Shown in pieces: positions 1 through 49,406 of a DNA stretch of 64,000 bases. This DNA comes from an uncultured Candidatus Saccharibacteria bacterium (GTDB lineage: Bacteria; Patescibacteriota; Minisyncoccia; Phycocordibacterales; UBA2100), in the NCBI GenBank assembly GCA_964362175.1, contig CAYIDD010000002.1:45939-109938 (forward strand), given 5' to 3'. A program made the translations under genes and the position numbers. The stretch's first letter is position 1; each line of letters opens with the position of its first letter. A model generated the notes under the pieces. It made no database searches. It saw nothing but the letters and a program-made list of their open reading frames with translations, and was not told the DNA's origin.

Positions 1-1448
1 AATTCATGCTCAACGTCGGCATCGAATACCTTACACTCGACCGCAAGGCCAATACGCTTTCGGGCGGCGAGGCGCAGCGTATCCGGCTCGCTTCCCAGCT
101 CGGGAGCGGCTTGGTGGGAGCTCTCTACGTTCTCGATGAGCCGACCATCGGTCTGCATCAGAGGGACAACGATAAGCTTATTCATACTCTCAAACACCTA
201 CGGGATCTCGGGAACACGGTATTAGTCGTCGAACACGATGAAGACACCATCTTTGCGTCAGACTACATTATCGACCTCGGGCCGGGTGCCGGCGTACACG
301 GGGGAGAGGTCGTCGTGTCGGGATGGCTTGAGGATCTGCTTACGGCAAAAACCAATAAATCTGGTTCACGCACGCTCGGATATTTGCGCGAAGAAGAGCG
401 CATAGAAATACCCGAGAAGCGTCGTACGGCCGATAGGGGGAAAATAAAGATACGCGGTGCCAACAAATTCAATATCAAGGGGATGAACGTCGACGTACCA
501 CTCGGAAAGTTCGTCGTTGTTTCGGGGGTTTCGGGTTCCGGAAAGTCCACATTTCTCTATGAGATACTGCATCGTAATTTGCAGGCGCGATTCGACAAGC
601 GGTATCGCACGGCAAAAACCTATAACGCCGCCGAATTTTCCGGCACGGAATATCTCGGGCGAGCGATATTGATAGACCAATCTCCTATCGGCCGTACACC
701 ACGCTCAAATCCCGCTACATACACCGGCGCCTGGACGCACATACGCGATATGTTCGCCATGAGCGAAGAGGCACGAGCGCGCGGCTGGGGGCCGGGGCGA
801 TTCTCATTCAATGTAAAGGGTGGGCGCTGCGAAGCGTGTCAGGGGAACGGGCTCGTGGCCGTGGAAATGCATTTCCTTCCGACCGTGTACGTAACCTGCG
901 ACGTGTGCAACGGGAAGCGATTCATGAAAGAGACATTGGAAGTGAAGTACAAAAGGAAGAGCATTCACGATGTGCTTTCGATGACGGTCGAAGAGGCGTA
1001 CGCATTCTTTGAGGATATTCCTGCCGTAGCCGATCGCATGCAGAGCTTGCTCGATGTGGGACTCGGGTATCTTGAGCTCGGGCAAAGCGCGACGACGCTC
1101 TCCGGAGGCGAAGCGCAGCGCGTGAAAATTGCCTCGGAGCTGTATCGCCCGTTCATCACGAAAAGTGTTTATCTTCTGGACGAACCCACGGTCGGGCTTC
1201 ACTACGACGACGTGGCGAAACTCATCGATATTTTGCAAAAATTGGTAGAGCGGGGAAATACCGTCATTACCATCGAGCACAACCTCGATGTATTGAAATG
1301 TGCCGATTACATCATCGACATGGGGCCGGAAGGCGGGGCAGGGGGCGGGAATATCGTCGCCAAAGGTACGCCGGAGGAAGTATCAAAGACGGACGGCTCA
1401 CACACGGGATACTATTTGAAGCGAATCTTGAAAAAGAGCGGGAAGTAG
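1..1448 (+). CDS. uvrA: Excinuclease ABC subunit A, C-terminal part (5' end lies outside the window)
   Basis: Two ABC signature motifs (LSGGEAQR twice), CxxC zinc-finger pairs and a C-terminal Walker B region. The ORF is open from the window edge. Confidence 0.9.
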   Translation, partial: FMLNVGIEYLTLDRKANTLSGGEAQRIRLASQLGSGLVGALYVLDEPTIGLHQRDNDKLIHTLKHLRDLGNTVLVVEHDEDTIFASDYIIDLGPGAGVHGGEVVVSGWLEDLLTAKTNKSGSRTLGYLREEERIEIPEKRRTADRGKIKIRGANKFNIKGMNVDVPLGKFVVVSGVSGSGKSTFLYEILHRNLQARFDKRYRTAKTYNAAEFSGTEYLGRAILIDQSPIGRTPRSNPATYTGAWTHIRDMFAMSEEARARGWGPGRFSFNVKGGRCEACQGNGLVAVEMHFLPTVYVTCDVCNGKRFMKETLEVKYKRKSIHDVLSMTVEEAYAFFEDIPAVADRMQSLLDVGLGYLELGQSATTLSGGEAQRVKIASELYRPFITKSVYLLDEPTVGLHYDDVAKLIDILQKLVERGNTVITIEHNLDVLKCADYIIDMGPEGGAGGGNIVAKGTPEEVSKTDGSHTGYYLKRILKKSGK

Positions 1449-1454
1449 GGGCTC

Positions 1455-4400
1455 TTACTTTTCCATTTTGTACTCTTCCCACGGCTTCGTCTTTAATCCA
1501 TCGCCCTCGCCCGTGGCCCGGCCACGGGCGAGGCTTTTTTGCTCCGCGAGCGCCATCACGAATGCTTCGGCGAGCTGCCGATTTGTGAGAAGCGGAATAT
1601 TCATGTCGACCGCCTTGCGACGGATGGTGAAGCCATCGGTGCTCTCGCTCGCCCCCGGACAGGTGGGGATATTGATGATGAGATCAAGGGCCCCCGCATT
1701 CAGAATGGTTGCAACGTTCGGCTCTTTTTTTGTGCTTATTTTGTAGACCTTCTCGCACGCGACATCGTTCTCTCGAAGGAAATCTGCCGTGTGCTCCGTG
1801 GCGATGAGGTTAAACCTCATCGTGGAGAGGGTTTTCATCGTGGATAGCAACTTGACCTTGCTCTCTTCACCCCCGACTGAGACCAAAATGTTCTTCTTCG
1901 GCAGTCGGAAACCGGCGGCCATCATTGATTTCAGGAGTGCTTCGGAATATGAGTCCCCGAAACAGGCGACCTCACCCGTCGAAGCCATCTCGACATTTGA
2001 GCGTGGGTCGGCTCCTTTGATGCGACTGTAGGAAAATTGCGGCGACTTCACGGCGACAAGGTCGAGCTCCAGAGTCCGGTAATTGCCGGAAATATCTTTG
2101 CCGAGCATTGCCCAAACAGCTTTTTCAATGAGGTTATAGCCTGTTACCTTGGAAACGAACGGGAAGCTGCGCGAGGCGCGTACATTGCACTCGATCACCT
2201 GAAGATTGTTGTCTTTCGCGATGAATTGGATGTTAAAGGGTCCGGTGATGTTGAGCGCCTTTACTATTAATTTCGTGATATGTTTTGCCCTTCGGGTGGT
2301 CTCGATGTAGGTTCTCTGTGGCGGCAACACGACCGTCGCATCGCCGGAGTGCGTCCCTGCATTTTCAACGTGCTCGGTGATCGCATAGAGTTTTAGGTTC
2401 CCTTTTGCAGCCACTCCGTCAATCTCGATCTCGCGCGCGTTCTCGATGAATTTTGATATGACCACCGGATGGTCGGAGGAGACATCGGCCGCGCGCTTCA
2501 AGAATTGGAGAAGGGAAGCCTCATCATACGCGATCTTCATCGCCGCACCTGAGAGCACGTATGAGGGGCGTACGAGGACCGGATAGCCCATTTTTGCCGC
2601 TATCTTCGCGGCGTCCGCATGCGTCCGCACCTCCGACCACGCAGGCTGATCCACGCCGAGCGTGTCGAGAAGCTTTGAGAACACGTGACGATCTTCAGCT
2701 CTGTCGATATCCCTTGGATCCGTTCCGAGGATCCTCACTTTTCTTTTGTGCAGTTTGAGCGCCAGGTTGTTCGGGATCTGCCCGCCGGTCGAGACGATAA
2801 CGCCTTTCGGGTCTTCAAATTCGATGATGTCGAGTACGCGTTCAAGCGAGAGTTCGTCAAAGTAGAGTCTGTCGGACATGTCGTAGTCCGTAGAAACAGT
2901 TTCCGGATTCGAGTTGATCATTATCGTGCCGAAGCCTTCGTGCTCAAGTGTTTTTAAGGCTTGTACACAGGACCAGTCGAACTCTACTGAGGAGCCGATC
3001 GCGTACGGACCACTCCCGAGTACGACCACTTGATCTTTCCCGCGGGAGATATCATTTTCTGTGCCGTGGTAGGTCATGTAGAGATAGTTGGTCTGTGCGG
3101 GGAATTCACCCGCCAGAGTATCGATCTGTTTGACCACCGGACGTACCTTGAGGCGGATACGCGCAGAGCGTATGTCTGTTTCCGTTTGCCCCTTCGTGTT
3201 CCCTATCTGAGCGTCGGAAAAGCCGGCTTTTTTTGCCCGCCGCATCGTATCCACAGTGAGCTTTGAGCGCTGAAGTTCCTTTTCGACCTCAATAATATTT
3301 TGCATTTTGGCAAGGAACCACGGGTCGATCTTTGAGAGTGCGCGTATCTTTTCGATAGACTCGCCCTCCCGAAACGCCTGCGCAAGCGCAAAGATGCGGC
3401 GTGTGGTCGGCTCCTGTATCTCCTTTAGGCAATCGGACACTTCGAAATCTTTTTTATTTTTCTGCGCCGTAAAACCGAGAGCGCCGATATTGAGCATACG
3501 CAGCGCCTTTTGAAGAGTTTCTTCGAACGAGCGCCCGATCGCCATCACTTCGCCGACACTTTTCATTTCAGTACCGATACAGGATGCCGCATTCTCGAAT
3601 TTTGCGAGATCCCACCGTGGCATTTTGAGCACAAGATAATCAAGCGCGGGCTCGAAACAGGCGGTAGTTTTTCCCGTGACAGAATTTCTGAGGTCAGTGA
3701 GTAGGTGTCCGAGTGCGAGTTTGGCAGCTACGAATGCGAGCGGATAGCCAGTGGCTTTTGAGGCAAGTGCCGATGAGCGTGAGAGACGCGCATTCACTTC
3801 AATGACGCGGTAGTCACTACTCCCCGGATGAAGCGCATACTGAATGTTGCACTCGCCGACGATGCCGAGGTGGCGGATAGTCTTGATCGCGATCTCGCGA
3901 AGGTTGTGATACTCGGCATTCGAGAGCGTCTGCGATGGTGCAACGACGATAGATTCACCCGTATGAATGCCCATAGGGTCAATATTTTCCATGTTGCAGA
4001 CCGTGATGCAGTTGTCCGCACGATCACGGACCACCTCATATTCGATCTCCTTCCATCCGCCAAGATATTCCTCTATCAGCACTTGCGAGGTTGAGCGGAA
4101 AACTTCGGGAAGCTTTGCCGAAAGTTCTGCAGCGTTTTTCACCATGCCCGATCCCTCACCGCCGAGCGCGAATCCGGAGCGCATCATGACGGGGTAGCCG
4201 ATCTCCTGCGCGGCTTGAAGTGCTTCGGCGACAGTGGTGGTGGCATGGCTGCGGGCGGTTTTTACGCCTATCTCATCCAAGCGCTTTACAAACAGATCAC
4301 GATCTTCAGTATCGCGGATCGTGGAAACGGGAGTACCGAGAACGCGCACATTGTATTTTTTTAGCACGCCGCTTTTTTCGAGCGAGAGACCGAGGTTGAG

Positions 4401-4676
4401 GGCGGTTTGTCCGCCGAACGAAAGAAGTATGGCATCCGGCCTTTCTTTCTCGATGACTTGGGTCGCAAAGTATTCTGTCAGAGGAAGGAAGTAGACCGTG
4501 TCGGCAAGGCCATTGTCGGTCTGAACTGTCGCGATGTTCGGATTTATCAGGATTATACGGATCCCCTCCTCTTTAAGTGCTTTGATCGCCTGTGAACCGG
4601 AGTAATCGAATTCACCCGCCTGACCGATCTTCAAGCCCCCTGAACCCAGTAGCAGTGCTTTTTTCGGTTTTCTCAT
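1455..4676 (-). CDS. carB: Carbamoyl-phosphate synthase large subunit
   Basis: 1073 aa. N-terminus MRKPKKALLLGSGGLKIGQAGEFDYSGSQA. Duplicated ATP-grasp halves and an MGS-like C-terminal domain. Confidence 0.95.
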   Translation of the reverse strand: MRKPKKALLLGSGGLKIGQAGEFDYSGSQAIKALKEEGIRIILINPNIATVQTDNGLADTVYFLPLTEYFATQVIEKERPDAILLSFGGQTALNLGLSLEKSGVLKKYNVRVLGTPVSTIRDTEDRDLFVKRLDEIGVKTARSHATTTVAEALQAAQEIGYPVMMRSGFALGGEGSGMVKNAAELSAKLPEVFRSTSQVLIEEYLGGWKEIEYEVVRDRADNCITVCNMENIDPMGIHTGESIVVAPSQTLSNAEYHNLREIAIKTIRHLGIVGECNIQYALHPGSSDYRVIEVNARLSRSSALASKATGYPLAFVAAKLALGHLLTDLRNSVTGKTTACFEPALDYLVLKMPRWDLAKFENAASCIGTEMKSVGEVMAIGRSFEETLQKALRMLNIGALGFTAQKNKKDFEVSDCLKEIQEPTTRRIFALAQAFREGESIEKIRALSKIDPWFLAKMQNIIEVEKELQRSKLTVDTMRRAKKAGFSDAQIGNTKGQTETDIRSARIRLKVRPVVKQIDTLAGEFPAQTNYLYMTYHGTENDISRGKDQVVVLGSGPYAIGSSVEFDWSCVQALKTLEHEGFGTIMINSNPETVSTDYDMSDRLYFDELSLERVLDIIEFEDPKGVIVSTGGQIPNNLALKLHKRKVRILGTDPRDIDRAEDRHVFSKLLDTLGVDQPAWSEVRTHADAAKIAAKMGYPVLVRPSYVLSGAAMKIAYDEASLLQFLKRAADVSSDHPVVISKFIENAREIEIDGVAAKGNLKLYAITEHVENAGTHSGDATVVLPPQRTYIETTRRAKHITKLIVKALNITGPFNIQFIAKDNNLQVIECNVRASRSFPFVSKVTGYNLIEKAVWAMLGKDISGNYRTLELDLVAVKSPQFSYSRIKGADPRSNVEMASTGEVACFGDSYSEALLKSMMAAGFRLPKKNILVSVGGEESKVKLLSTMKTLSTMRFNLIATEHTADFLRENDVACEKVYKISTKKEPNVATILNAGALDLIINIPTCPGASESTDGFTIRRKAVDMNIPLLTNRQLAEAFVMALAEQKSLARGRATGEGDGLKTKPWEEYKMEK

Positions 4677-4677
4677 A

Positions 4678-5712
4678 TCACTTTTTCAAAGATGCGATGA
4701 ATTCATTGAATATCCATGTGGTGTCGGTCGGTCCGGGAGAGGCTTCGGGATGAAATTGCACCGAACGCCACGGCTTTGATCGATGACGGATGCCCTCGTT
4801 GCTTCCGTCGTTCGCATTCGTGAACCATTTTTCCCAACCGGCAGGAAGCGATTTCGCATGCACCGCGTAGCCATGATTTTGGGAGGTAAGGTAACAGCGG
4901 CCAGTTTTTGCTTCTACGCATGGCTGATTTTGACCGCGATGCCCATATTTGAGCTTGTATGTTTTTGCGCCTGCGGCGAGCGCGAGGAGTTGATTGCCAA
5001 GGCAGATGCCAAGAATGGGTTTTTTCTCAGCCATCGCCTTCTTGATGGTTTCGATGGTTGCGGTGCATTTGGTAGGGTCGCCAGGACCGTTGGAAATAAA
5101 AAGTGCATCATATTTTTCATTTGTAAGATCGTAATTCCACGGCACACGAATGACCGTTGTCTCGGGGCGGGTGAGGGAGCGGACGATGTTTTCTTTCATG
5201 CCGCAGTCAATTGCGACGATCTTTATCGGGCCGCCGCCGTATACTTTTTTCTTCTTGGGGCTCACGCGCGCGACAAGATCCTCTTTGTTGGGGTCGGTAA
5301 ATGTGCCACGTTTTCCTGAATTGGCGAGTTGTCCCAACATTACACCGCGTTCCCGAAGACGTTTGGTGAGCGCCCGTGTGTCGATGCCGGTAATGGCGGG
5401 AATTCCGGATGCCTTCAGCCATGAGGCGAGTGATCGCTGTGCATCGTGATGAGAGTATTCGGGAGAATACTGTGCGACGACCAATCCAGCCACCTGGATC
5501 TTAGGAGATTCGAATGTGTCCGGTGCAGGTACGCCATAGTTGCCGATAAGGGGATATGTGCAAACAAGTATCTGTCCGGCGTACGAAGGGTCTGTAAGGG
5601 TCTCTACATAGCCTGTCATGCCGGTGTTAAATACTACTTCTCCGGCGGCCGACACATCGGCACCAAAACTTTCCCCTTCGAACACCGTGCCGTCTTTGAG
5701 GTAGAGCTTCAT
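4678..5712 (-). CDS. carA: Carbamoyl-phosphate synthase small subunit (glutamine amidotransferase)
   Basis: The 344-aa C-terminal part of the 602-aa track ORF ([18 protein letters not shown]...; GATase motif GICLGNQLL) is CarA. The ATG at 5712 is in frame and lies 2 nt upstream of carB. The N-terminal 258 codons of the track ORF are non-coding extension. Confidence 0.9.
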
Positions 5713-5871
5713 GCAAGAAAAAACCCGCGATCTGCGGGCAATCGGGAGAGATAAAAAAATACACCCATGCGGGTGTTCTCTGCGAGAAACTTTCCGGAGG
5801 TCATTAAAACTGAAGTGTAGCAAATTCATTGTCGCTGTCAAGCTTGGGGTGTTTTTGTGTATACTCCCCCC

Positions 5872-7095
5872 ATGACACGTAACGAACTGCAAAAATCCAA
5901 GCTTCCCGACAAGCCCGGAGTGTATATATTCCGCGGGAAGGGAAGAAAGATACTCTACATCGGAAAGGCGACATCGCTCCGAGATCGCCTGCGAAGTTAT
6001 TTTTCGTCCAATATTGCCTCTATCCGCAGCAGCGCGATCGCAAAAATGGTGGAAGAGGCTCGCTCGATCTCGTACAAAACCACAAAGTCGGTGCTCGAAG
6101 CGCTCATTCTTGAGGCGAACCTCATAAAGCAGCATCAGCCGCCGTACAATCTCGATGAGAAAGACAACAAAAGTTGGAATTACGTAGTCATAACGAAAGA
6201 GAACTTTCCCCGAATATTGCTTGTGCGCGGACGAGAACTGTATCAGAAATGGGATCTGAAGGATGTCGCACGTACATTTGGACCTTTTCCACACGGCAAA
6301 CAATTGCAGGAGGCAGTGAAAATCGTTCGGAAAATATTTCCGTTCCGCGACAAATGTACACCCTGTGGAGGTCCCGACGTGGTATGCAAGCCGTGCTTCA
6401 ACCGGCAGATAGGGCTGTGCCCTGGTGTGTGTTACGGCGAAGTATCGAAAGAAGAATATGCGCGCACCGTTCGGAACATCCATCAATTATTTTCCGGGAA
6501 CTTTAAGGGGCTCAAACGGCAACTTGCGCGTGACATGAAAGCAGCGGCGGAGGGGGAGCGCTTCGAGGCGGCATCCAGACTGCGCCAGCAAATTTCGGCG
6601 CTCGAACATATCCGCGACGTATCGCTGATAAAAAATGGATTGCCATCGAGCGGCGGAGGCACTCGCATTGAGGCCCTCGATGTGGCGCACACCGGAGGGT
6701 CTGAGACCGTTGCGGTGATGGTCGTTGTCAGCAACGGAGAGGCGGTAAAGAATGCATACAGAAAATTTAAGATACGTACCGCGGCAAATGACGATATTGC
6801 GGCGCTCAAGGAGGCACTAACTCGTCGCCTCACTCATCCGGAATGGCCTCTACCGCGGGTGTTCGTCGTTGATGGGGGCGTGGCCCAAATGAGAGCTGCA
6901 GCGTTGGTTTCCAAGGAAGCCGGGGTTGCTATTCCTATCGTGGGGGTCGTAAAGAATGAGTTCCACAAGCCGGAACGCCTCATCGGGGACGCGCGGGCCA
7001 TCGAGGCGTATGAAAAGGATATTCTGTTCGCGAACAGCGAAGCCCACAGGTTCGCTCTTCAGTGGCACCGCACGCGCCGTGACAAGATATACTGA
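5872..7095 (+). CDS. uvrC: Excinuclease ABC subunit C, short form lacking the C-terminal HhH domain
   Basis: GIY-YIG motif ([18 protein letters not shown]), the UvrBC-interaction region and the RNase H-like endonuclease domain are present. It is only about 407 aa from the ATG at 5872; the track start at 5857 is a GTG overlapping the -10 box. Confidence 0.85.
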
Positions 7096-7100
7096 GTACC

Positions 7101-7535
7101 ATGTATTGGACCTATGTACAAATACTCACGTTTCTCTCTATCCTCGCGGTTATATTTGGCGGGGGATATGTAGCATATCGAAACGCGACAACGCCGGAAA
7201 CAATGGATCTGTATGCTGCCGCAGACCTTGATCTTTCCCGGTTTCCCCCCACCGTCTGCAGGACCTCATGGAGTTCATTTGAGGCAGCCGGAAGCGCGGT
7301 TGCGTATATTGTGGAAGGTAAATTTCGTATGGATGTGCAAATGGTCGCGGGAAAAGATACGGCCGTCTACCATATCGTAAAGCTCCCCGGCAAAGCTATA
7401 GAGGCTTCGGGCAAGCGAAATAACGTTGAGAATATTGATCCCGCAGATATTGTATTACCGGAAGCGGAATTACGTACCGTTGCACAATGTGATCCGTGGT
7501 GGTTCCCCAACCGGTCTTTTTTCAACGTCTTGTGA
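7101..7535 (+). CDS. Hypothetical membrane-anchored protein
   Basis: 144 aa with an N-terminal TM helix (ILTFLSILAVIFGGGYVAY) and no recognisable domain. It has its own TATACT -10 box 7 nt upstream. Confidence 0.5.
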   Translation: MYWTYVQILTFLSILAVIFGGGYVAYRNATTPETMDLYAAADLDLSRFPPTVCRTSWSSFEAAGSAVAYIVEGKFRMDVQMVAGKDTAVYHIVKLPGKAIEASGKRNNVENIDPADIVLPEAELRTVAQCDPWWFPNRSFFNVL

Positions 7536-7578
7536 TCCGCATGATATTGGTACGGAAGTGTGATGGTACAATATCGGA

Positions 7579-8547
7579 ATGACACGGATGTCGGTCGGAA
7601 TTTTGCGCGGTGGAACATCAAGTGAATACAATCTGTCGCTGAGATCGGGTGCCGCGATCCTCAGTGCACTTCCCGATGATCGATACGATACGCGCGATAT
7701 TTTTGTAGACAGGCGTGGATACTGGCATTTACGGGGCACACCGATGGACGCCGCACGCGCGCTTTCCCAAGTTGATGTCGTGCTCAATGCACTGCACGGG
7801 GGGCCTGGTGAGGATGGTACGGTGCAGCGCATTCTCGAACGCGCCGGCATCCCGTATGCGGGTTCGCGCGCCTCCGCCTCCGCGCTCGCGCTCAATAAAA
7901 TTCGCGCGCGAAATGTTCTTGAAAAAGCCGGCATACGAATGCCGCGCGCTTCGTCGTTCACCATGCAAGACGATCTTACTACCGGACAGATGGCGCAGCT
8001 CGTGTTTGCCCGATTCGGCCCGCCCTACGTTGTGAAGCCCCCCAGCGAGGGGGCGGCAACCGGAGTTCGCATTGCGGGGACATTGTTGGACCTGCCCGAT
8101 CTTCTGGGAGACGTGCTCGATGCATACGGCGCGGCCCTGGTGGAAGAGTATGTGCGCGGACAGGAGGCGAGTGTCGGTGTCATCGAAAATTTCCGTGGGG
8201 AAGATCTCTACGCGTTGCCTCCGGCGCATGTCGTCCTTCCGGAGGGGTTCCACTTCATGGAACTGCGGCACCACGAAGAGGGAATGTTGCGGCACATGGT
8301 GCCAAGCAGTTTTCATCATGACGAAAAACAGGCTCTTTCAAATATGGCGCGTGCTGCTCACAGGGCACTCGGCTTGTCGCATTTCTCGCGCGCGGATATC
8401 ATCCTGACGTCCCGCGGCCCGTATCTCTTGGAAGCGAATGCGATTCCCGGTCTCTACAGGGGAGCATCTTTTCCGGCGATGCTCGAATCCGTGGGTTCCT
8501 CCGTACGCGAATTTCTCGAGCACGCGATACATTTGGCTCGGAAATAA
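7579..8547 (+). CDS. ddl: D-alanine--D-alanine ligase
   Basis: 322 aa. N-terminus MSVGILRGGTSSEY, HGGPGEDGTVQ motif and an ATP-grasp C-terminal domain. Confidence 0.9.
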   Translation: MTRMSVGILRGGTSSEYNLSLRSGAAILSALPDDRYDTRDIFVDRRGYWHLRGTPMDAARALSQVDVVLNALHGGPGEDGTVQRILERAGIPYAGSRASASALALNKIRARNVLEKAGIRMPRASSFTMQDDLTTGQMAQLVFARFGPPYVVKPPSEGAATGVRIAGTLLDLPDLLGDVLDAYGAALVEEYVRGQEASVGVIENFRGEDLYALPPAHVVLPEGFHFMELRHHEEGMLRHMVPSSFHHDEKQALSNMARAAHRALGLSHFSRADIILTSRGPYLLEANAIPGLYRGASFPAMLESVGSSVREFLEHAIHLARK

Positions 8548-8554
8548 AAAATTG

Positions 8555-8580
8555 AACCCTGCGGATTATGCCGCAGGGTT
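8555..8580. terminator. Bidirectional rho-independent terminator between convergent ddl and the pfkB-family kinase gene
   Basis: AACCCTGCGG-attatg-CCGCAGGGTT, a 10-bp perfect stem with an A-run upstream and a partial T-run downstream. Confidence 0.6.
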
Positions 8581-8609
8581 CGTTGTTGTCAGTGTTCGGT
8601 GAAGAACAT

Positions 8610-9524
8610 TCAGGCAGCCAGGCGAATGTCGTACTGCCGGAGCGTTTGGTACACTTGCCCGAGCGTAGGCGGTTCGTTTCCGAACCGCTGGATTTTGTGG
8701 GCCACGGCCGCGGTTGCAAATCGGAGATGGCGCTCCCAGGCTTGATCTGGGTACGTCAGATAGGAGTAGATGCGAGCGCCATTGAAGATGTCGCCGGAGC
8801 CGTTCTCGTCGATCACCGATTCTTCGGGAACCTTCAGTGCGTTCATATGCGTAATTGGTCCGTCGTCGACGAAGTATCGAAGGCCGTCCGCACCGAGTGT
8901 CACTATGCCGACCTCAGCATGTCGACGGAGATCAGATAGCATCCCATCCACGCTCTGTCCCATATCATCGCAGAAGCGCGCTGAAACAGTTGCGTGGGTG
9001 ATACGCGGCAAAAGTTTTTCGATACCCGGTCGAGCCCTTCCAAAGTCGCTTGATCTAGGAATGCCCAGGCGTTCTGCCTCGCCAAGATAATACTCTGCCG
9101 CGTCGAAGTGCCGACCGTCAACGTGGACGAGTCGGCAATTTTCGATGTTAAGCAGAGGAAAGTCCTGTAAGTAGCTTTCTCCCTCAGGCGGACTGATGAT
9201 CACGCGACCGGATTCGTTCGGAAGAATGATCGCGCTTGGCGTTTCTTCCATCAGCCGCGGATGCCAGTAGATACCGGCCTCCTTTACCACCTGCTCGATC
9301 ATTAAGCCCGCGATGTCCTTGCCGATGCCGCTGATGACATCGGGCTTGAGACCGAATACGGCGCAGGTCACCGCTGCCGTGAAAGCGTTGCCGCCGGAGC
9401 GAAAAGCTTTCTTTAACGCCACCGTTTTTTGGTCGCCCGTGGGAATGCTCTTGACGAGCGCCACGTCATCAAGGATCGCCTGACCGATAAACAGAACGCT
9501 TCCTCGAAGTTGGGTACGGTCCAT
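8610..9524 (-). CDS. PfkB/ribokinase-family carbohydrate or nucleoside kinase
   Basis: 304 aa. GG motif near the N-terminus and a C-terminal DENGSGDIFNGA (DTxGAGD-like) anion-hole motif. Confidence 0.7.
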   Translation of the reverse strand: MDRTQLRGSVLFIGQAILDDVALVKSIPTGDQKTVALKKAFRSGGNAFTAAVTCAVFGLKPDVISGIGKDIAGLMIEQVVKEAGIYWHPRLMEETPSAIILPNESGRVIISPPEGESYLQDFPLLNIENCRLVHVDGRHFDAAEYYLGEAERLGIPRSSDFGRARPGIEKLLPRITHATVSARFCDDMGQSVDGMLSDLRRHAEVGIVTLGADGLRYFVDDGPITHMNALKVPEESVIDENGSGDIFNGARIYSYLTYPDQAWERHLRFATAAVAHKIQRFGNEPPTLGQVYQTLRQYDIRLAA

Positions 9525-9658
9525 GGTTACTCCTCACCTGTTGCCGCTGTGCATTTTTTGAGCGCTATGAACTGACCGAATACTGTTCTAATCAAAAGCA
9601 TTGTCAATACCTTCCGCTTTGCGAATATGGTGAAGTCTGGTAGTTTAAAGCTTCGACT

Positions 9659-9733
9659 GGGCCAGTAGTTCAGTGGTAGAATGCCTCATTTGCAATGAGG
9701 AGGTCCGGGGTTCGATCCCCCGCTGGTCCACCA
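9659..9733 (+). tRNA. tRNA-Ala (anticodon UGC), CCA encoded
   Basis: Cloverleaf: acceptor GGGCCAG/CTGGTCC with the G3:U70 alanine identity pair. Anticodon stem CCTCA/TGAGG with loop TTTGCAA gives anticodon TGC. T-arm CGGGG-TTCGATC-CCCCG. Confidence 0.9.
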
Positions 9734-11991
9734 TGCATATCGTTGTTCCTATAAAAAACCTTCACGAACACATCGCTACGTTAGCACGGACCACGCCAAA
9801 AAAGATCGCGCTTGTCGCGACGGACGAACGGGGGACTACCACCGAGAAGATCACGTATGCCGACTTGCTCGAAAAGGTAGAAGCGGCGGCGGCGGAGTTG
9901 AGAGATCTCGGTTTGCAAAAGGGGGATCGTATCGCGCTCGCATTCCGTAATTCGCCCGCACTTCTTATATGGAGCTGGGCCGCATGGGCGATGGGCATAG
10001 TGACGGTGCCCATGGACACAAAGCGGGACACTCCGGAACTCTACGCGTATAAGATCAATCTCAATAAAGCGAAGGTGTTGATCCTTGAGCGGGGGATACA
10101 GGTAGATAAACTACCTGGCGTTCGTGTCAAAGTACATCTGGAATTCCCTTCCGAAGGAGGGTCCGCCTCTGGCGGAAAAGGTGCACCGGTTGCATGGGAG
10201 AAGGGGCTCTCGCATCAATCGCTCGTTCTCTTTACCTCCGGCACGACCGGCCATCCGAAGGGGGCGATGCTCTCCCTCGAGAATCTCATCGTCAATGCGA
10301 GCGGTATCTGTGAATGGTTACGGTTCACCGAGAATGATGTATTTCTCGTAAATCTGCCCCTGCACCACATCAACTCCACCACGTTCTGCCTCTCGACGCT
10401 CCTTGCGGGCGGTACGATCGCCATACCGCCGCAGTATTCGAATTCGCATTTTTGGGAGCAGAGCGGCAAAACGGGCGCTACCGTTACGTCTGTGGTGCAA
10501 TCGATCGTATTTGATCAGCTGAAGCGCGAAAAGGAGTTCGCGGCCGGGAAAAAACATGTAAAACTGAATAAAATACAAATAGGCTCTGCTCCGGTACTCG
10601 CACAGTCGGTGCAGGAATTCCAGAAGAAATTTGGCATCCGTCTCTATCAAGGCTACGGACAAACGGAGACGGCGCTTCGGGTGACCGGCGTTCCAATGGA
10701 CATTTCGGAGGAGCTCCACGAAAGACTTGTGGAGGAAAATTCCATCGGGACACCTATGCAATGGGCCGATCTGCAGGTATCGGACGATGAGGGAAAGCTA
10801 CTCGACGAGGGAGAGGAGGGGGAACTCATCGTCAAAGGTCCCGCGATCATGGAAGGGTACCTCGGACGCGAACCGGCGTTCCGCAACGACTACTTCCTTA
10901 CGGGGGACATCGGCTACTACCGTGTTATCGAGGGCCGGAAATATTTTTATCTCAAAGGCCGCAAACGGGAAATCATCATCAAGGGTGGTATCAACGTCTC
11001 GCCAGTCGCTGTCGAAAATGCTCTCAAGAAAATATCAGGAGATATAGATCAGGTACACGTTGTCCCCGTGCCTGATGAACGATATGGCGAGGAGGCTGGC
11101 GCCGTCATCTCATGGAAAACCGGTATAGATGAAATGCGCGCGAAACGGTACCTCAAGAGCACACTACTCCTCGGTACGCGATACCTCAGTGCATACGAGA
11201 CGCCCAAGTACATAACATCACTTTCAATAAGCGAGCTTCCGATGACCTCCACCGGAAAAGTGCAACGCGGCGTTCTGAAAGGCACCATTCCGTATGAAAA
11301 ATTCGAGTCAATATTCGGTCTCCTCAAGACACCTAAGTACCGCTTTACTGTGTTGCACCGCTATTCACGATGGACGGAGCCCTCATATGAACTACACAAA
11401 CGTTGCTGGGGGGATATTGCCGGCACGAGGGAGGAGTATGAAAAGAATATCCCCAAACAGCTCATTATCCTTGCGGCAAGGCCGGACGACACGATCGTCG
11501 GACAGATCGCCGTCGTTCGTACGAGCCTCCCGGAAAAGGAGCTTCTTCAAAAAAAATATGATGAATTGATCCCAGAAGCATCTGATCGTGAGGGAAATGC
11601 GCTTGTATGCGTTTCCATTTGCAACGCTGAATACACGCCAAGACCCATTCCTTCGGTGAATTTAATCCCGAAACCCGATGAGGTCCGCGCATATCTTTTA
11701 GGCGGGAACGACCCCGTCATGCGATTCCACGAAAAGCCGAAAGGAGGTCTTGCCGAGGGTGCAAAGCTTGTCGACGTCATTGAGAGTGGCCGGCCCAAAG
11801 ACAAAAGCTCGCTCGGATACAACATGCTTCTCAAATATCCGGAACCGAAAAATATTGTCATCCATACGCACGCACCCGTCCCCAACCAGCTCATTGAGAT
11901 GGTGCTTCTTCTTGCGGGCGATCTCGGTATCAAAAATGTGTACGCCTACTCGCGTCCTGGCGGCTTGGCGTCGTATGTATCCACAGGTTGA
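9733..11991 (+). CDS. AMP-forming acyl-CoA synthetase/ligase fused to an extra C-terminal domain of about 220 aa with no recognised family
   Basis: Motifs TSGTTGHPKG, YGQTE, GEL..KG.....GY and C-terminal TGKVQR of adenylate-forming enzymes end near residue 530. A further ~220 residues follow. The ATG at 9733 shares its A with the tRNA CCA; the track start at 9673 is a GTG inside the tRNA. Confidence 0.8.
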   Translation: MHIVVPIKNLHEHIATLARTTPKKIALVATDERGTTTEKITYADLLEKVEAAAAELRDLGLQKGDRIALAFRNSPALLIWSWAAWAMGIVTVPMDTKRDTPELYAYKINLNKAKVLILERGIQVDKLPGVRVKVHLEFPSEGGSASGGKGAPVAWEKGLSHQSLVLFTSGTTGHPKGAMLSLENLIVNASGICEWLRFTENDVFLVNLPLHHINSTTFCLSTLLAGGTIAIPPQYSNSHFWEQSGKTGATVTSVVQSIVFDQLKREKEFAAGKKHVKLNKIQIGSAPVLAQSVQEFQKKFGIRLYQGYGQTETALRVTGVPMDISEELHERLVEENSIGTPMQWADLQVSDDEGKLLDEGEEGELIVKGPAIMEGYLGREPAFRNDYFLTGDIGYYRVIEGRKYFYLKGRKREIIIKGGINVSPVAVENALKKISGDIDQVHVVPVPDERYGEEAGAVISWKTGIDEMRAKRYLKSTLLLGTRYLSAYETPKYITSLSISELPMTSTGKVQRGVLKGTIPYEKFESIFGLLKTPKYRFTVLHRYSRWTEPSYELHKRCWGDIAGTREEYEKNIPKQLIILAARPDDTIVGQIAVVRTSLPEKELLQKKYDELIPEASDREGNALVCVSICNAEYTPRPIPSVNLIPKPDEVRAYLLGGNDPVMRFHEKPKGGLAEGAKLVDVIESGRPKDKSSLGYNMLLKYPEPKNIVIHTHAPVPNQLIEMVLLLAGDLGIKNVYAYSRPGGLASYVSTG
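10156..10181 (+). repeat. Palindromic mini-element copy 1, in-frame in acs (encodes EGGSASGGKG)
   Basis: GGAGGG-TCCGCC-tct-GGCGGA-AAAGG. It matches 24 of 26 nt of the nspC copy. Confidence 0.7.
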
Positions 11992-45712: not shown

Positions 45713-46201
45713 ATGGACTTCCACGCATGGTGGGCTTTGGCGGAACAGTGGCCGACGGATTGGATCATTATCGGCGCACTGGTCACCTTTGTGGCACTCG
45801 ACGCGCTCCGTTCCGGCTCCGCCCGCGCGGCCGCTCTCGCTTTATCACTTCCCGCGGCGCTGGTTGTGACGAACGCATTGCCGCAAGCATTCTTTCTCGG
45901 TCCCCTTACTGCGGAATTCACCGCGCCCATGATACACGTGGCGATATTTTCCGGAATATTCGTACTTCTCTATTTTGCAACGCATCGAAGTATCTTCACG
46001 TTCTCGGTCGGTGGAGGCATTATCCAATCTATCGTCGCGGGTATCGCAGCGATCATCGTTCTCATTCTGATTTGGCTCCAAATTCCCACGCTTGATTCGG
46101 TGTGGAATTTTGGCGGACAGGTGCGTGCTGTCTTCGCTCCGGCCTATCAATTTTGGTGGTTCTTTGTGGCTTTCCTCGGTCTGACTTTTGCGAGGAGTTA
46201 A
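45713..46201 (+). CDS. Hypothetical polytopic membrane protein
   Basis: 162 aa, about 5 TM helices. Confidence 0.45.
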   Translation: MDFHAWWALAEQWPTDWIIIGALVTFVALDALRSGSARAAALALSLPAALVVTNALPQAFFLGPLTAEFTAPMIHVAIFSGIFVLLYFATHRSIFTFSVGGGIIQSIVAGIAAIIVLILIWLQIPTLDSVWNFGGQVRAVFAPAYQFWWFFVAFLGLTFARS

Positions 46202-46430
46202 TTATTGGCGGTCCCCCTTGGCCAGCGCGGGGTTTCGCCTGTGAATTGTGTCTCTGTTCCGATATATACTACAAACCATGCAAAACCCGATTTTTCCGCT
46301 AGTCGCTTGGATTCGCCGACACAGCTAGTCTTTTGCACCGCATATCACTTCCCAGAGCTTGCGGGGTTAGGGGCCACTAAACGAACACGGGGGGCTTGTT
46401 TTATACCTTTTTTGGTATAGTGTTTGATCG

Positions 46431-47078
46431 ATGGGGATGGTCGAGTCGGGAATCATTGCCGCAGCGCTTCAGGTTGCAGGATACCTTTTTTATGGCTCCA
46501 AGGTCCTTCGCGAAGATATACTCCCGAATCCGGCATCCTGGTTGATGTTTGCCTACGGAACTCTATTTCTCTTCATCGTCGAGTGGGATCGGGATGCGAG
46601 TTTCGCGATCCTAGCGCTTCCTGCGGCCTGTGCGATCTCCAGTATTGCAGTCGCCCTCTATACCCTGCGGAAGCAACGCGGGTGGTGGCCGGAACATATT
46701 CTCGAGAAATTTTCATTCGGGCTCGACATCCTCTTGACGGTCGCGTATGTTTCTGCCTGGTTTTTCTTTACGGGAGATCTTATCAGTGCGGATATGAGAG
46801 AGGCGGCTACGATAATTATTCTTTTATGTTGGAACGTGGGTATATTCACGTCCTTTTTCCCGCTGCTGCGCCAGGTGTACCACCATCCGAGGACAGAGCA
46901 TGCACTTCCGTGGATAGTCTGGACGGGCGCGTACGTCATGCTTGCAACAGTTACGGTGATGGAAGTAGGTGGTATCAATGAGCTTTTCTTATACCCCGTT
47001 ATCAACGCCTGCGTACATGGACTCATCGCCATCCGTACGGCATACTGGCACCACTCTCACGGACTCTCCATAGTATGA
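46431..47078 (+). CDS. Hypothetical polytopic membrane protein, translationally coupled to the downstream SET-domain gene
   Basis: 215 aa, about 6 TM helices. Its stop overlaps the next ATG as ATGA. Confidence 0.5.
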   Translation: MGMVESGIIAAALQVAGYLFYGSKVLREDILPNPASWLMFAYGTLFLFIVEWDRDASFAILALPAACAISSIAVALYTLRKQRGWWPEHILEKFSFGLDILLTVAYVSAWFFFTGDLISADMREAATIIILLCWNVGIFTSFFPLLRQVYHHPRTEHALPWIVWTGAYVMLATVTVMEVGGINELFLYPVINACVHGLIAIRTAYWHHSHGLSIV

Positions 47079-47554
47079 AACGAATAAAAGTGTTCAAAAG
47101 CTCTATTCACGGCCGAGGTATATTTGCCGACGAGACAATCTCCAAAGGCGAGCGCATTACCTACATCCGCGGGCCCATAAAACAGAAAACTCCTCGGGGT
47201 CCGCGCGACTCAAAAATTATCGGTAACTGGATCGGTGTTGCAAAAGATACTTGGATCAAACCGGAGGCACCGTATATGTACCTAAACCACTCCTGTAATC
47301 CTAACTCCGCATTGATAACCAAGCGTTTACTTATCGCACTTCGACCGATAGCGCGAAACGAGGAAATTACTATGGATTACTCATTGACCGATAGTGATTT
47401 GCACTGGGGGATACGTTGTTCGTGCGGGGCCAGAAATTGTCGCAAGCATATTCGAGCAATACAAACGCTCTCTCCCCGGATTTTTCGGCACTACCTCCCG
47501 CATATACCGCCCTACTTTCAGAAAGTGTACGCAAAGGCCCACACCCACGGATAA
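47075..47554 (+). CDS. SET-domain protein (putative lysine methyltransferase)
   Basis: NHSCNPN pseudoknot motif and EEITMDY; post-SET-like CSCGARNC cysteine cluster. 159 aa. Confidence 0.7.
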   Translation: MKRIKVFKSSIHGRGIFADETISKGERITYIRGPIKQKTPRGPRDSKIIGNWIGVAKDTWIKPEAPYMYLNHSCNPNSALITKRLLIALRPIARNEEITMDYSLTDSDLHWGIRCSCGARNCRKHIRAIQTLSPRIFRHYLPHIPPYFQKVYAKAHTHG

Positions 47555-47606
47555 TTGTTCGACAAGTTGCCTTTGAGGATCTCTAAGCTCCTCGTATACT
47601 TGTGCC

Positions 47607-49406
47607 ATGGTGAATGGAAGATCTCGGATGCTGTACGCTGCACTACTTGTTGCCGTTGCAATATCCGTGGGAGGGATTTTTCTGCGGTCTTTTGTTTTTC
47701 AGAGTTACGCGATCGATGTCAATGAATCGGTCATCAGTCATGGGGAAAGTTCGCGCCAGCTCATCGCAAACGATGCGCTGGCGTGCGAGTGGGCACCTGA
47801 TCCTTTTTTAATATTTTCTGCCAACGTATTTTCACCCCTGATTTACTATTCCCACCTGTTCCCCGCTTTAGCGAGCGTCCTGCTCGGATTCTTTATTTGG
47901 CGACAACGGAAAAAATCGCTTTTGAATGGGTTATTCGTATTTCTCGTCAGTATATTCGCCGCGTGGTCGCTGTATGATCTCGTCCTGTGGGCTACGGCAA
48001 ATCCCGACGTGACCATTTTTGTATGGTCAGTGCAGATATTTCTCGATGTCGGCGTGTATATGAGTGCCGGGTACCTCTGCTATGTATTCTTCTATGAACG
48101 AGATCTGTCGTTCACGATGAAGGTTATTGCCGTCGCGGCGCTCATTCCCGTCATCTTTCTTGCTCCAACTGCACTTAATCTTGCTTCTTTCGATTACACT
48201 ACCTGCGACCGTGAGGCGACCGAAGGAGGATTGTGGCACTACGTCTATCTGTTCGAGATTCTCATCGTGCTTTGGGTGGCTGCGCACGCCGTCCGCGCCT
48301 TCCGCGCCGCAACAACTCCAGAGCGCAAAAAGCAGATACTTTCATTCGCCCCCGCAATCATTCTGTTCCTCGTCGCCTTCTCGTGGGGCAACATCGTAGG
48401 CAGTCTTACCTCGGATTGGTCCATCCCCCAATACGGACTTTTTGGGATGCCTATCTTCCTTGCCGTAACGCTGTACCTCATCGTCAAATATCAAACCTTC
48501 CAAGTACAGACGATCGCCGCCTCAGCACTCGTGAGCGGCCTCTGGACACTTCTATTCTCCATACTTTTCCTAGCGGACATGGAGACTGCGCGCCCGGTCA
48601 TTGTGATAACGCTGGTATTCTTCGCGATGATGGGGTTGCTCTTGGTGCGGAGTGTGCGTCGCGAGATTGCACAACGCCACTTGATCGAGAAGCAGGAGAA
48701 AGAGCTGGAGATCGTGAACAAGCAGCAGGAAAATCTACTCCACTTCATGAGCCACGAGGTCAAGGGGTACCTAACCGAAGGGCAGGCGGGGTTTGCTTCG
48801 ATAGTCGAAGGGGATTATGGCGCAGTGCCGGATTCTCTCAAGACGATGGCGACGAACGCGCTCGTGAAAGTACGAAAGGGTGTGGCGACTATCATGGACA
48901 TCCTGAAAGCATCCGATATGAAAAAGGGTACGGTGGCGTACAAAAAAGACTCCTTTAACTTTAGGAAAGCGGTGGAAACCATCGCGGGTGAACAAAAGGC
49001 GGCTGCATTGGAAAAAGGTCTTGGATTTGAGGTGAACATCGCGGAAGGGAAGTACGTAATGACGGGGGATGCGGAGAAGGTGCGCGACCACGTCATCCGC
49101 AATCTTATGGACAATGCTGTCCGCTACTCTCCGACCGGTACGATCCATGTCGAGCTTTCCGACGGAGGAGGGAAGATACGCTTTTCAGTAAAAGACAACG
49201 GGGTCGGTATCACAGAGGAAGACATGCAACATCTCTTTACTGAGGGCGGTCATGGAAAGGACTCGATAAAGGTCAACGTCCATTCGACTGGCTACGGCCT
49301 CTTTATCGCGAAACAGGTCGTCGACGCCCACGGCGGCAAAATTTGGGCGGAATCAGAGGGGGAAGGCAAGGGTGCCACGTTCATTGCAGAATTTCACGCC
49401 ATATAG
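47607..49406 (+). CDS. Sensor histidine kinase with an N-terminal polytopic membrane sensor domain. No cognate response regulator is present in the window
   Basis: About 8 TM helices. HisKA H-box FMSHEVKG. HATPase_c N, G1 and G2 boxes (DNGVGI, GYGLFIAKQVVDAHGG). Confidence 0.8.
   Translation: MVNGRSRMLYAALLVAVAISVGGIFLRSFVFQSYAIDVNESVISHGESSRQLIANDALACEWAPDPFLIFSANVFSPLIYYSHLFPALASVLLGFFIWRQRKKSLLNGLFVFLVSIFAAWSLYDLVLWATANPDVTIFVWSVQIFLDVGVYMSAGYLCYVFFYERDLSFTMKVIAVAALIPVIFLAPTALNLASFDYTTCDREATEGGLWHYVYLFEILIVLWVAAHAVRAFRAATTPERKKQILSFAPAIILFLVAFSWGNIVGSLTSDWSIPQYGLFGMPIFLAVTLYLIVKYQTFQVQTIAASALVSGLWTLLFSILFLADMETARPVIVITLVFFAMMGLLLVRSVRREIAQRHLIEKQEKELEIVNKQQENLLHFMSHEVKGYLTEGQAGFASIVEGDYGAVPDSLKTMATNALVKVRKGVATIMDILKASDMKKGTVAYKKDSFNFRKAVETIAGEQKAAALEKGLGFEVNIAEGKYVMTGDAEKVRDHVIRNLMDNAVRYSPTGTIHVELSDGGGKIRFSVKDNGVGITEEDMQHLFTEGGHGKDSIKVNVHSTGYGLFIAKQVVDAHGGKIWAESEGEGKGATFIAEFHAI

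Follow-up and report, generated by a model that had tools for sequence, protein, structure and literature searches.

A bacterial SET-domain methyltransferase paired or fused with a seven-helix membrane protein of SWEET/PQ-loop-like fold

Introduction

SET proteins of bacteria are mostly treated as secreted effectors that were borrowed from eukaryotes. The characterised prokaryotic representatives either target host chromatin after secretion or act on proteins of the nucleoid, and we know of none that has a conserved membrane partner, a membrane fusion or a link to a two-component system. The locus studied here raises the question of what a SET enzyme might do at a bacterial membrane. It is located in a DNA stretch of 64,000 nucleotides (the window) from a Patescibacteria MAG, whose habitat is Hainich groundwater (0.1 µm fraction). 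A small SET domain is encoded directly downstream of a polytopic membrane protein, and the two genes overlap.

Results

Organisation of the locus

The cassette and its immediate surroundings consist of the following features:

45713..46201, + strand: small multi-TM protein, 162 aa, the upstream membrane ORF
46413..46421, + strand: extended -10-like element TGGTATAGT, by direct sequence reading, about 10 nt 5' of the ATG of the 7TM gene
46431..47078, + strand: 7-TM membrane subunit, 215 aa, hydrophobic; unannotated family with a SWEET/PQ-loop/KDEL-receptor-like fold
47075..47078, + strand: ATGA stop/start overlap of the 7TM and SET genes, by direct sequence reading
47075..47554, + strand: SET-domain methyltransferase, 159 aa; core SET, Cys-rich post-SET and two-helix C-terminal extension
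47607..49406, + strand: multi-TM sensor histidine kinase, 599 aa, with a HATPase_c match

The two ORFs and their ATGA overlap, which had been proposed from the sequence alone, were recovered at these positions, and the overlap is consistent with translational coupling. The small membrane protein and the orphan multi-TM kinase that the same reading had placed at the flanks are present as well. The cassette is bordered by dnaK, dnaJ and the 162-aa membrane ORF on the 5' side, and by the kinase gene, trpS and aspS on the 3' side. The kinase is the only histidine kinase encoded in the 64 kb. It matched HATPase_c with 88.1 bits and contains an H-box-like FMSHEVKG, and its orthologues have a HisKA match in Pfam. 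A search of the window for receiver domains (small REC profile derived from four sequences, E <= 1; tblastn) gave no match, and the kinase is therefore a local orphan.

The largest intergenic space nearby is a 229-nt gap (46202-46430) on the 5' side of the 7TM gene. TGGTATAGT, which is located at the end of this gap, is possibly a weak candidate promoter that would give rise to a near-leaderless transcript; the site was absent from the list of a consensus promoter scan. A structured leader or riboswitch was rejected, because the gap had no Rfam match (E <= 1) and folded no better than shuffled sequence (z = 0.59). The SET and kinase genes are separated by 52 nt. Just 5' of the kinase start, positions 47573-47600 contain TTGAGG-16-TATACT, which is a consensus match only.

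Homologues of the 162-aa protein are found upstream in CPR loci. It was considered as a universal fourth component and rejected, as it is restricted to CPR and the upstream proteins in two other loci (L090, L031) are unrelated to it. Because its synteny with the cassette is limited to CPR, the protein is possibly an accessory component, but not a core part.

The SET domain

The SET ORF matched the Pfam profile SET (PF00856) with 47.9 bits (cutoff 22.4) over positions 1-105 of 105. It contains the motifs IHGRGIF, NHSCNPN, EEITMDY and C-x-C-x4-C; all elements of the minimal SET domain with Cys-rich post-SET that had been read from the sequence are thus present. The ORF could be aligned to MLL1 across SET and post-SET (E 1e-13, 54.7 bits), and GxG, NHS/C and the Tyr of ELxF/YDY, i.e. 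the SAM-binding and catalytic motifs, align with those of MLL1. Among 31 homologues, G15 of the GxG motif, N71-H72-S73-C74, E97, D101 and Y102 are invariant, as are C115, C117, C122 and R123 in the post-SET segment. The putative post-SET zinc-binding cysteines C74, C115, C117 and C122 all belong to this invariant set.

Structure prediction, which had been suggested as a check of completeness, yielded an AF2 model with a pLDDT of 93.6 and a pTM of 0.87 that contains the SET beta-fold. With this model, Foldseek retrieved 357 SET structures from the PDB at E <= 1e-3; MLL1 was the first match (E 5e-10), joined by MLL2-4. BurB followed close behind the MLL enzymes (TM 0.63-0.65), and its sequence match to the SET ORF (E 3.6e-8, 36.6 bits) is confined to residues 70-133. 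According to sequence and model, the fold is complete and the enzyme is predicted to be catalytically competent.

Only three residues precede the first SET strand, and flanking domains are absent. In the family, the position of the Phe/Tyr switch is variable (M, Y, F, I, C), a two-helix C-terminal extension with the motif IQxLPxxxFxxYxPxIPxYF is conserved, and the SETs that partner a 7TM protein are uniformly basic (pI 9.0-10.3). The KMT2/MLL enzymes (MLL1-4, SET1) are the best match in sequence and structure, and GxG, NHSC, ELT-x-DY and the Cys3+1 zinc site are common to both. Their activity depends on WDR5/RbBP5/ASH2L and on the flanking N-SET and WIN elements. In contrast, the SET protein of the window comprises only 159 aa, has neither an N-terminal flank nor WRAD-type partners, and possesses its own two-helix C-terminal extension and the variable switch position. 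It resembles the KMT2/MLL subfamily without being a member of it: it lacks flanking domains, it is bacterial, and its partner is a 7TM protein. To our knowledge, no 7-TM partner or fusion exists among eukaryotic MLL-type enzymes.

BurB is a Burkholderia SET enzyme that S-methylates methionine; its acceptor is a free metabolite, and the acceptor of a SET domain need not be a lysine (PMC12542666). Like the SET of the window, it is a minimal bacterial domain (about 160 aa) of comparable fold. However, BurB is soluble and encoded in a biosynthetic gene cluster, whereas the window SET is partnered with a 7TM protein. The residues of BurB were also compared in an attempt to tell protein substrates from small-molecule ones, which proved uninformative: methionine is held via main-chain atoms, so that a comparison of residues cannot place the window SET in either substrate class.

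The membrane protein

The partner had been described as a 6-TM protein of unknown family. The AF2 model of the 215-aa protein (pLDDT 91.9) displays seven helices instead, with a predicted topology that places the N-terminus outside and the C-terminus in the cytoplasm. The protein is indeed unannotated; what had been missed is its fold, which is the seven-helix transporter fold of SWEET, PQ-loop and KDELR proteins. Its structural neighbours are SWEET13, SWEET2b, cystinosin and the KDEL receptor, at a sequence identity of 6-9%. None of 61 family members matched Pfam MtN3_slv (PF03083) or PQ-loop (PF04193) at E <= 1, and an internal repeat of TM1-3 and TM5-7 was undetectable by sequence (hhalign probability < 1%). 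The protein thus has a SWEET/PQ-loop fold, yet is outside those sequence families. In contrast to SWEET, PQ-loop (cystinosin, PQLC2) and KDEL receptor proteins, the family is bacterial and coupled to a SET domain or a kinase. Weak matches to 7TMR-DISM_7TM occurred in 4/61 members (best E 0.007), and the window protein was not among these.

The family comprises 583 sequence clusters. With a mean column identity of 60%, it is more strongly conserved than the SET family (44%). Forty positions are invariant; they are mainly polar and aromatic and cluster where TM1/2 and TM5/6 end on the cytoplasmic side. The conserved motifs of this side are PNPxSW and PLLRQVYxHPxTE..PW. The family alignment contains no invariant lysine in the cytoplasmic loops, which makes methylation of the 7TM protein itself unlikely, and self-methylation was dismissed.

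Some patescibacterial loci contain tandem, diverged 7TM paralogues in front of a single SET gene, namely L006 (5107-5697 and 6001-6600), L008 (730-1377 and 1501-2094), L050 (5004-5639 and 5763-6401) and L064. The second copy is about 44-47% identical to the window protein. This arrangement hints at a heteromeric membrane part.

Pairing and fusion

Whether the pair is conserved had been named as a check. In 23/30 genomic loci with a 7TM homologue, tblastn located a SET gene directly downstream on the same strand; these include all loci from Patescibacteria as well as alphaproteobacterial ones (Caulobacter segnis, Hyphomicrobium, Hyphomonadaceae). A further 52 metagenome loci were then included and the loci were scored by profile HMM, which gave 57 informative non-redundant loci from Patescibacteria and Alphaproteobacteria. 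SET is directly downstream of the 7TM gene in 48/57 of these, 5 of which have both in a single ORF, and no more than 4 kb away in 54/57; for low-GC, CPR-like loci the count is 39/40. Since the scan was run with alignment A1 and not with the 61-sequence alignment A3, the sample of loci leans towards members that retain WLMFAYGT. Of 51 non-redundant pairs, 16 overlap by exactly 4 nt and 5 form a fusion; in most others the two genes are at most 100 nt apart. The recurrence in 48/57 loci and the 4-nt overlap in 16/51 pairs argue against a chance adjacency. The pairing is conserved in both phyla, and some members have the two domains in one polypeptide.

Based on Pfam, 7TM-SET fusions are present in at least 11 representative clusters of the 7TM family. 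Fused ORFs were found in L018, L022, L025 and L026. Furthermore, one CPR genome (L089) encodes a 375-aa 7TM-SET fusion at the orthologous locus, in the order grpE-dnaK-dnaJ ... fusion-HK-trpS-aspS, and the cultured sphingomonad Aquisediminimonas profunda possesses a fusion (WP_219893865.1) that is annotated merely as "SET domain-containing protein". As the C-terminus of the 7TM domain is predicted to be cytoplasmic, the fused SET domain would reside in the cytoplasm. From the fusions we infer, with strong support and high confidence, that the 7TM protein tethers the SET domain and that both form a complex. SET homologues of 33-35% identity (P0107, P0111) have no 7TM neighbour; the association is therefore specific to one SET subfamily.

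Association with sensor kinases

The order 7TM, SET, kinase was observed in every CPR locus examined, even where the other flanks differ. The kinases that follow SET in these loci are multi-TM proteins of 545-600 aa and orthologous to the kinase at 47607..49406. That a kinase is present next to the pair had been stated before; what had been missed is that it is no bystander, but a third component conserved in CPR. A search with the sensor region of the kinase revealed more than 224 homologues across Patescibacteria, some of which match HisKA_7TM. The idea that its TM region is a diverged 7TM paralogue was discarded, since hhalign gave a probability of 0.6% and the regions are unrelated.

Three distant kinase homologues (L094, L095, L096) were inspected, and a SET gene precedes each of them. 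In L095 and L096, the order is 7TM, SET, small TM peptide, kinase. In L094, a Magasanikbacteria locus of unrelated context (4027-7223), the order is EamA-like 125-aa protein, partner-type SET, kinase, receiver, and there is no 7TM gene. As synteny is broad in CPR (dnaK-dnaJ ... trpS-aspS), part of the kinase adjacency there could be inherited order. In L094 and in L019, a stand-alone receiver is encoded after the kinase.

Two minor features of these loci are worth recording. The 125-aa EamA-like protein of L094, a four-helix, transporter-like membrane protein, is in the place of the 7TM protein and may substitute for it. An ORF of 49-75 aa is located between SET and kinase in L095 (4804-5013), L096 (4840-4989), L004 (5686-5898) and L015 (4704-4931); those of L095 and L096 each contain a hydrophobic, single-TM-like stretch. 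The ORFs found at this position in some CPR loci could encode a further small subunit.

Where alphaproteobacterial loci lack a partner-type SET next to the 7TM domain, this domain forms a fusion with TM-CHASE4-TM-HisKA-HATPase (L016, L011, L019), or the 7TM and the CHASE4 kinase are adjacent or frameshifted (L010, L029); P0125 consists of 7TM plus CHASE4. Where the 7TM-SET pair is present, a CHASE4 kinase may be divergent to it (L021, L023, L024), and in A. profunda a CHASE4-GGDEF-EAL protein is divergent to the 7TM-SET fusion. Fusions without a nearby sensor gene occur in L022, L025, L026 and L090. The two groups of alphaproteobacterial CHASE4 kinases gave no BLAST match to each other and only a weak hhalign match (E 3e-4, probability 40%), and their orthology was rejected. 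As the relationship between the groups is distant, the CHASE4 link holds at the level of domain architecture. Taken together, the 7TM-SET, 7TM-sensor and SET-kinase links each have independent support.

The loci with a 7TM-CHASE4 kinase contain a different SET subtype at a distance of one or two genes. It is encoded on the opposite strand in L010 (8633-9229, -), L029 (8645-9241, -), L011 (8603-9199, -) and L030 (6348-7040, -), i.e. near 7TM-CHASE4-kinase fusions or, as may apply to L030, stand-alone 7TM genes. In L010 and L029, NHA/NHG replaces NHSC and the post-SET cysteines are absent. The SET of L030 keeps NHS and ends soon after the catalytic Tyr.

Discussion

SET domains and SWEET/PQ-loop folds are already known; what appears to be new is the obligate pairing or fusion, the 7TM family and the linkage to sensors. 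The libraries Pfam, NCBIfam, PADLOC and PHROGs contain no entry for the pairing, for the 7TM family or for its linkage to sensor kinases or CHASE4. We found no description of a SET-7TM module in the literature, which is no proof that the module is unpublished. An MLL-like SET domain with a full post-SET is here the obligate partner of, or fused to, a conserved 7-TM family. The occurrence of this module in Patescibacteria and Alphaproteobacteria, together with its linkage to their own sensor kinases, points to an endogenous, membrane-associated role.

The reading that we favour, to which we assign about an even chance on the grounds of genomic context and predicted structures, is that a ligand-sensing 7TM protein holds and gates a cytoplasmic SET enzyme within a sensor-kinase cassette. 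The overlapping genes would encode two halves of one membrane-bound unit. The 7TM domain would bind, and perhaps transport, a ligand and would hold the basic, MLL-like SET domain against the cytoplasmic face of the membrane. As some proteins combine the 7TM domain with SET and others with a CHASE4 kinase, and as it is also encoded beside CHASE4 sensors, it behaves as a sensory input module; by this logic of domain architecture it would be the input of the unit. SET would then act as the output enzyme, and the conformation of the 7TM domain would control the access or activity of SET. In Patescibacteria, the unit would work with the downstream multi-TM histidine kinase. The methyl group may be transferred to a lysine of a protein that resides near the membrane and acts in the same pathway, with the kinase or its partner as the first candidate.

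There are precedents for such a use of transporter folds. The KDEL receptor is a receptor and not a transporter. PQLC2 recruits the C9orf72 complex in a conformation-dependent manner, which makes a transporter fold act as a receptor (PMC7039192). Ks-Amt5 combines an Amt domain with a histidine kinase, and Sd-Amt1 combines one with a diguanylate cyclase (PMC5764959, PMC11152129). The architecture 7TM-CHASE4-HisKA-HATPase follows the same logic, although the folds are different (Amt versus SWEET/PQ-loop-like).

A more far-reaching version is possible, although we consider it clearly short of an even chance: the module may represent a new class of bacterial signalling, in which a 7-TM receptor of SWEET/PQ-loop fold uses a SET lysine methyltransferase as output or adaptation enzyme that methylates the co-encoded kinase, the CHASE4 sensor or a partner. 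We know of no SET methyltransferase that has been described as the output attached to a transporter-fold sensor. If true, such a system would be a lysine-methylation counterpart of the CheR/chemoreceptor methylation and would extend bacterial transmembrane signalling by a methyltransferase that acts in output or adaptation. It would also assign an ancient, cell-autonomous bacterial role to MLL-like SET domains and offer a testable case on the origin of the SET/MLL catalytic module of eukaryotes. In addition, a function would be assigned to a widespread "hypothetical" membrane family, whose genes belong to the small number of signalling genes that genome-reduced CPR bacteria have retained. The fusions in the culturable Caulobacter segnis and in A. 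profunda make the system experimentally tractable.

The same core data are compatible with transport-coupled chemistry, given the transporter-type fold and a relative, BurB, that acts on a free amino acid. The 7TM protein would then be a true transporter, at whose cytoplasmic mouth SET methylates the cargo; this could be an amine or thioether, e.g. a basic amino acid, that is methylated on entry or before export, and CHASE4 or multi-TM sensors would monitor the same compound. Most members of the SWEET and PQ-loop families are transporters, as are the nearest fold neighbours SWEET13, SWEET2b and cystinosin. A fusion of transporter and enzyme suits substrate channelling, and some fusions have no sensor nearby. 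Moreover, the free-methionine enzyme BurB (PMC12542666) is structurally as close as MLL (TM 0.65), with a sequence match of E 3.6e-8. However, the SET sequence is nearer to the protein-lysine methyltransferase MLL (54.7 bits) than to BurB (36.6 bits), and the 7TM domain is also fused to histidine kinases without a partner-type SET, as is typical of sensory input domains. In addition, the neighbourhood of the pair contains no recurrent genes for biosynthesis or catabolism in the loci examined, and the KDEL receptor acts as a receptor with the same fold. We regard transport-coupled methylation as less likely than the favoured reading, but as its main rival. Another alternative is that the 7TM protein is a passive anchor, which only localises a protein lysine methyltransferase with general membrane-proximal or ribosomal targets, while the adjacency of the kinase reflects inherited gene order alone. 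Conserved adjacency and fusion demonstrate tethering and not regulation, the synteny around the cassette is broad in CPR loci, and a basic SET domain (pI 9-10.3) would suit acidic lipids or targets. Yet seven helices with 40 invariant positions are needless for anchoring, and SET and kinase are adjacent outside the synteny block, in L094. As the 7TM protein is conserved more strongly than the enzyme (60% versus 44%) and was independently fused to CHASE4 kinases, a mere anchor fits poorly, and we judge it improbable.

The least probable explanation, to which we give hardly any weight, takes up the remark of the sequence-only reading that bacterial SET proteins are often host-interaction or chromatin-mimic effectors: the SET protein would be secreted to modify proteins of the CPR host. 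Many CPR bacteria are episymbionts, and the closest sequences are eukaryotic MLL SET domains. A precedent is the secreted histone methyltransferase NUE of Chlamydia (PMC2904774). However, in the fusions the SET domain follows the cytoplasmic C-terminus of a 7-TM domain, and the module also occurs in Alphaproteobacteria, including Caulobacter segnis and the cultured A. profunda; both observations leave the idea of a host effector unsupported. Furthermore, secretion-system genes do not recur nearby in the loci examined, and the module is coupled to the bacterium's own sensor kinases. Of the related proposal of a membrane-tethered effector, the tethering is borne out by the conserved pairing and the fusions; the effector part is not.

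Like the window SET, the characterised Legionella RomA/LegAS4 and Methanosarcina Go1-SET are small prokaryotic SET methyltransferases; these enzymes are soluble. The same is true for Chlamydia NUE, which is likewise a small bacterial SET methyltransferase, but is soluble and secreted to host chromatin (PMC2904774). The module considered here would be a gated, membrane-held SET enzyme according to the favoured reading.

Its origin was also considered with respect to mobile elements. A defence-system or phage origin was rejected, as neither PADLOC nor PHROGs yielded a match for the 7TM protein, SET, the upstream ORF or two fusion proteins. The surroundings of two individual loci are nevertheless to be recorded. 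In L090, a 7TM-SET fusion (7121-8941) is found beside a BubE / ThiF-DUF6791 / Multi_ubiq set, a KAP NTPase and T4SS-like genes; this region with its ubiquitin-like genes looks like a mobile or defence island. In L031, the distant SET P0111 (5001-5486), which has no 7TM partner, belongs to a compact same-strand block (242-10295) that looks phage- or mobile-element-like and encodes two AAA ATPases, UDG, Thg1, a nucleotidyltransferase, HU and a DksA-type zinc finger. An upstream gene for a 156-aa protein overlaps the start of P0111.
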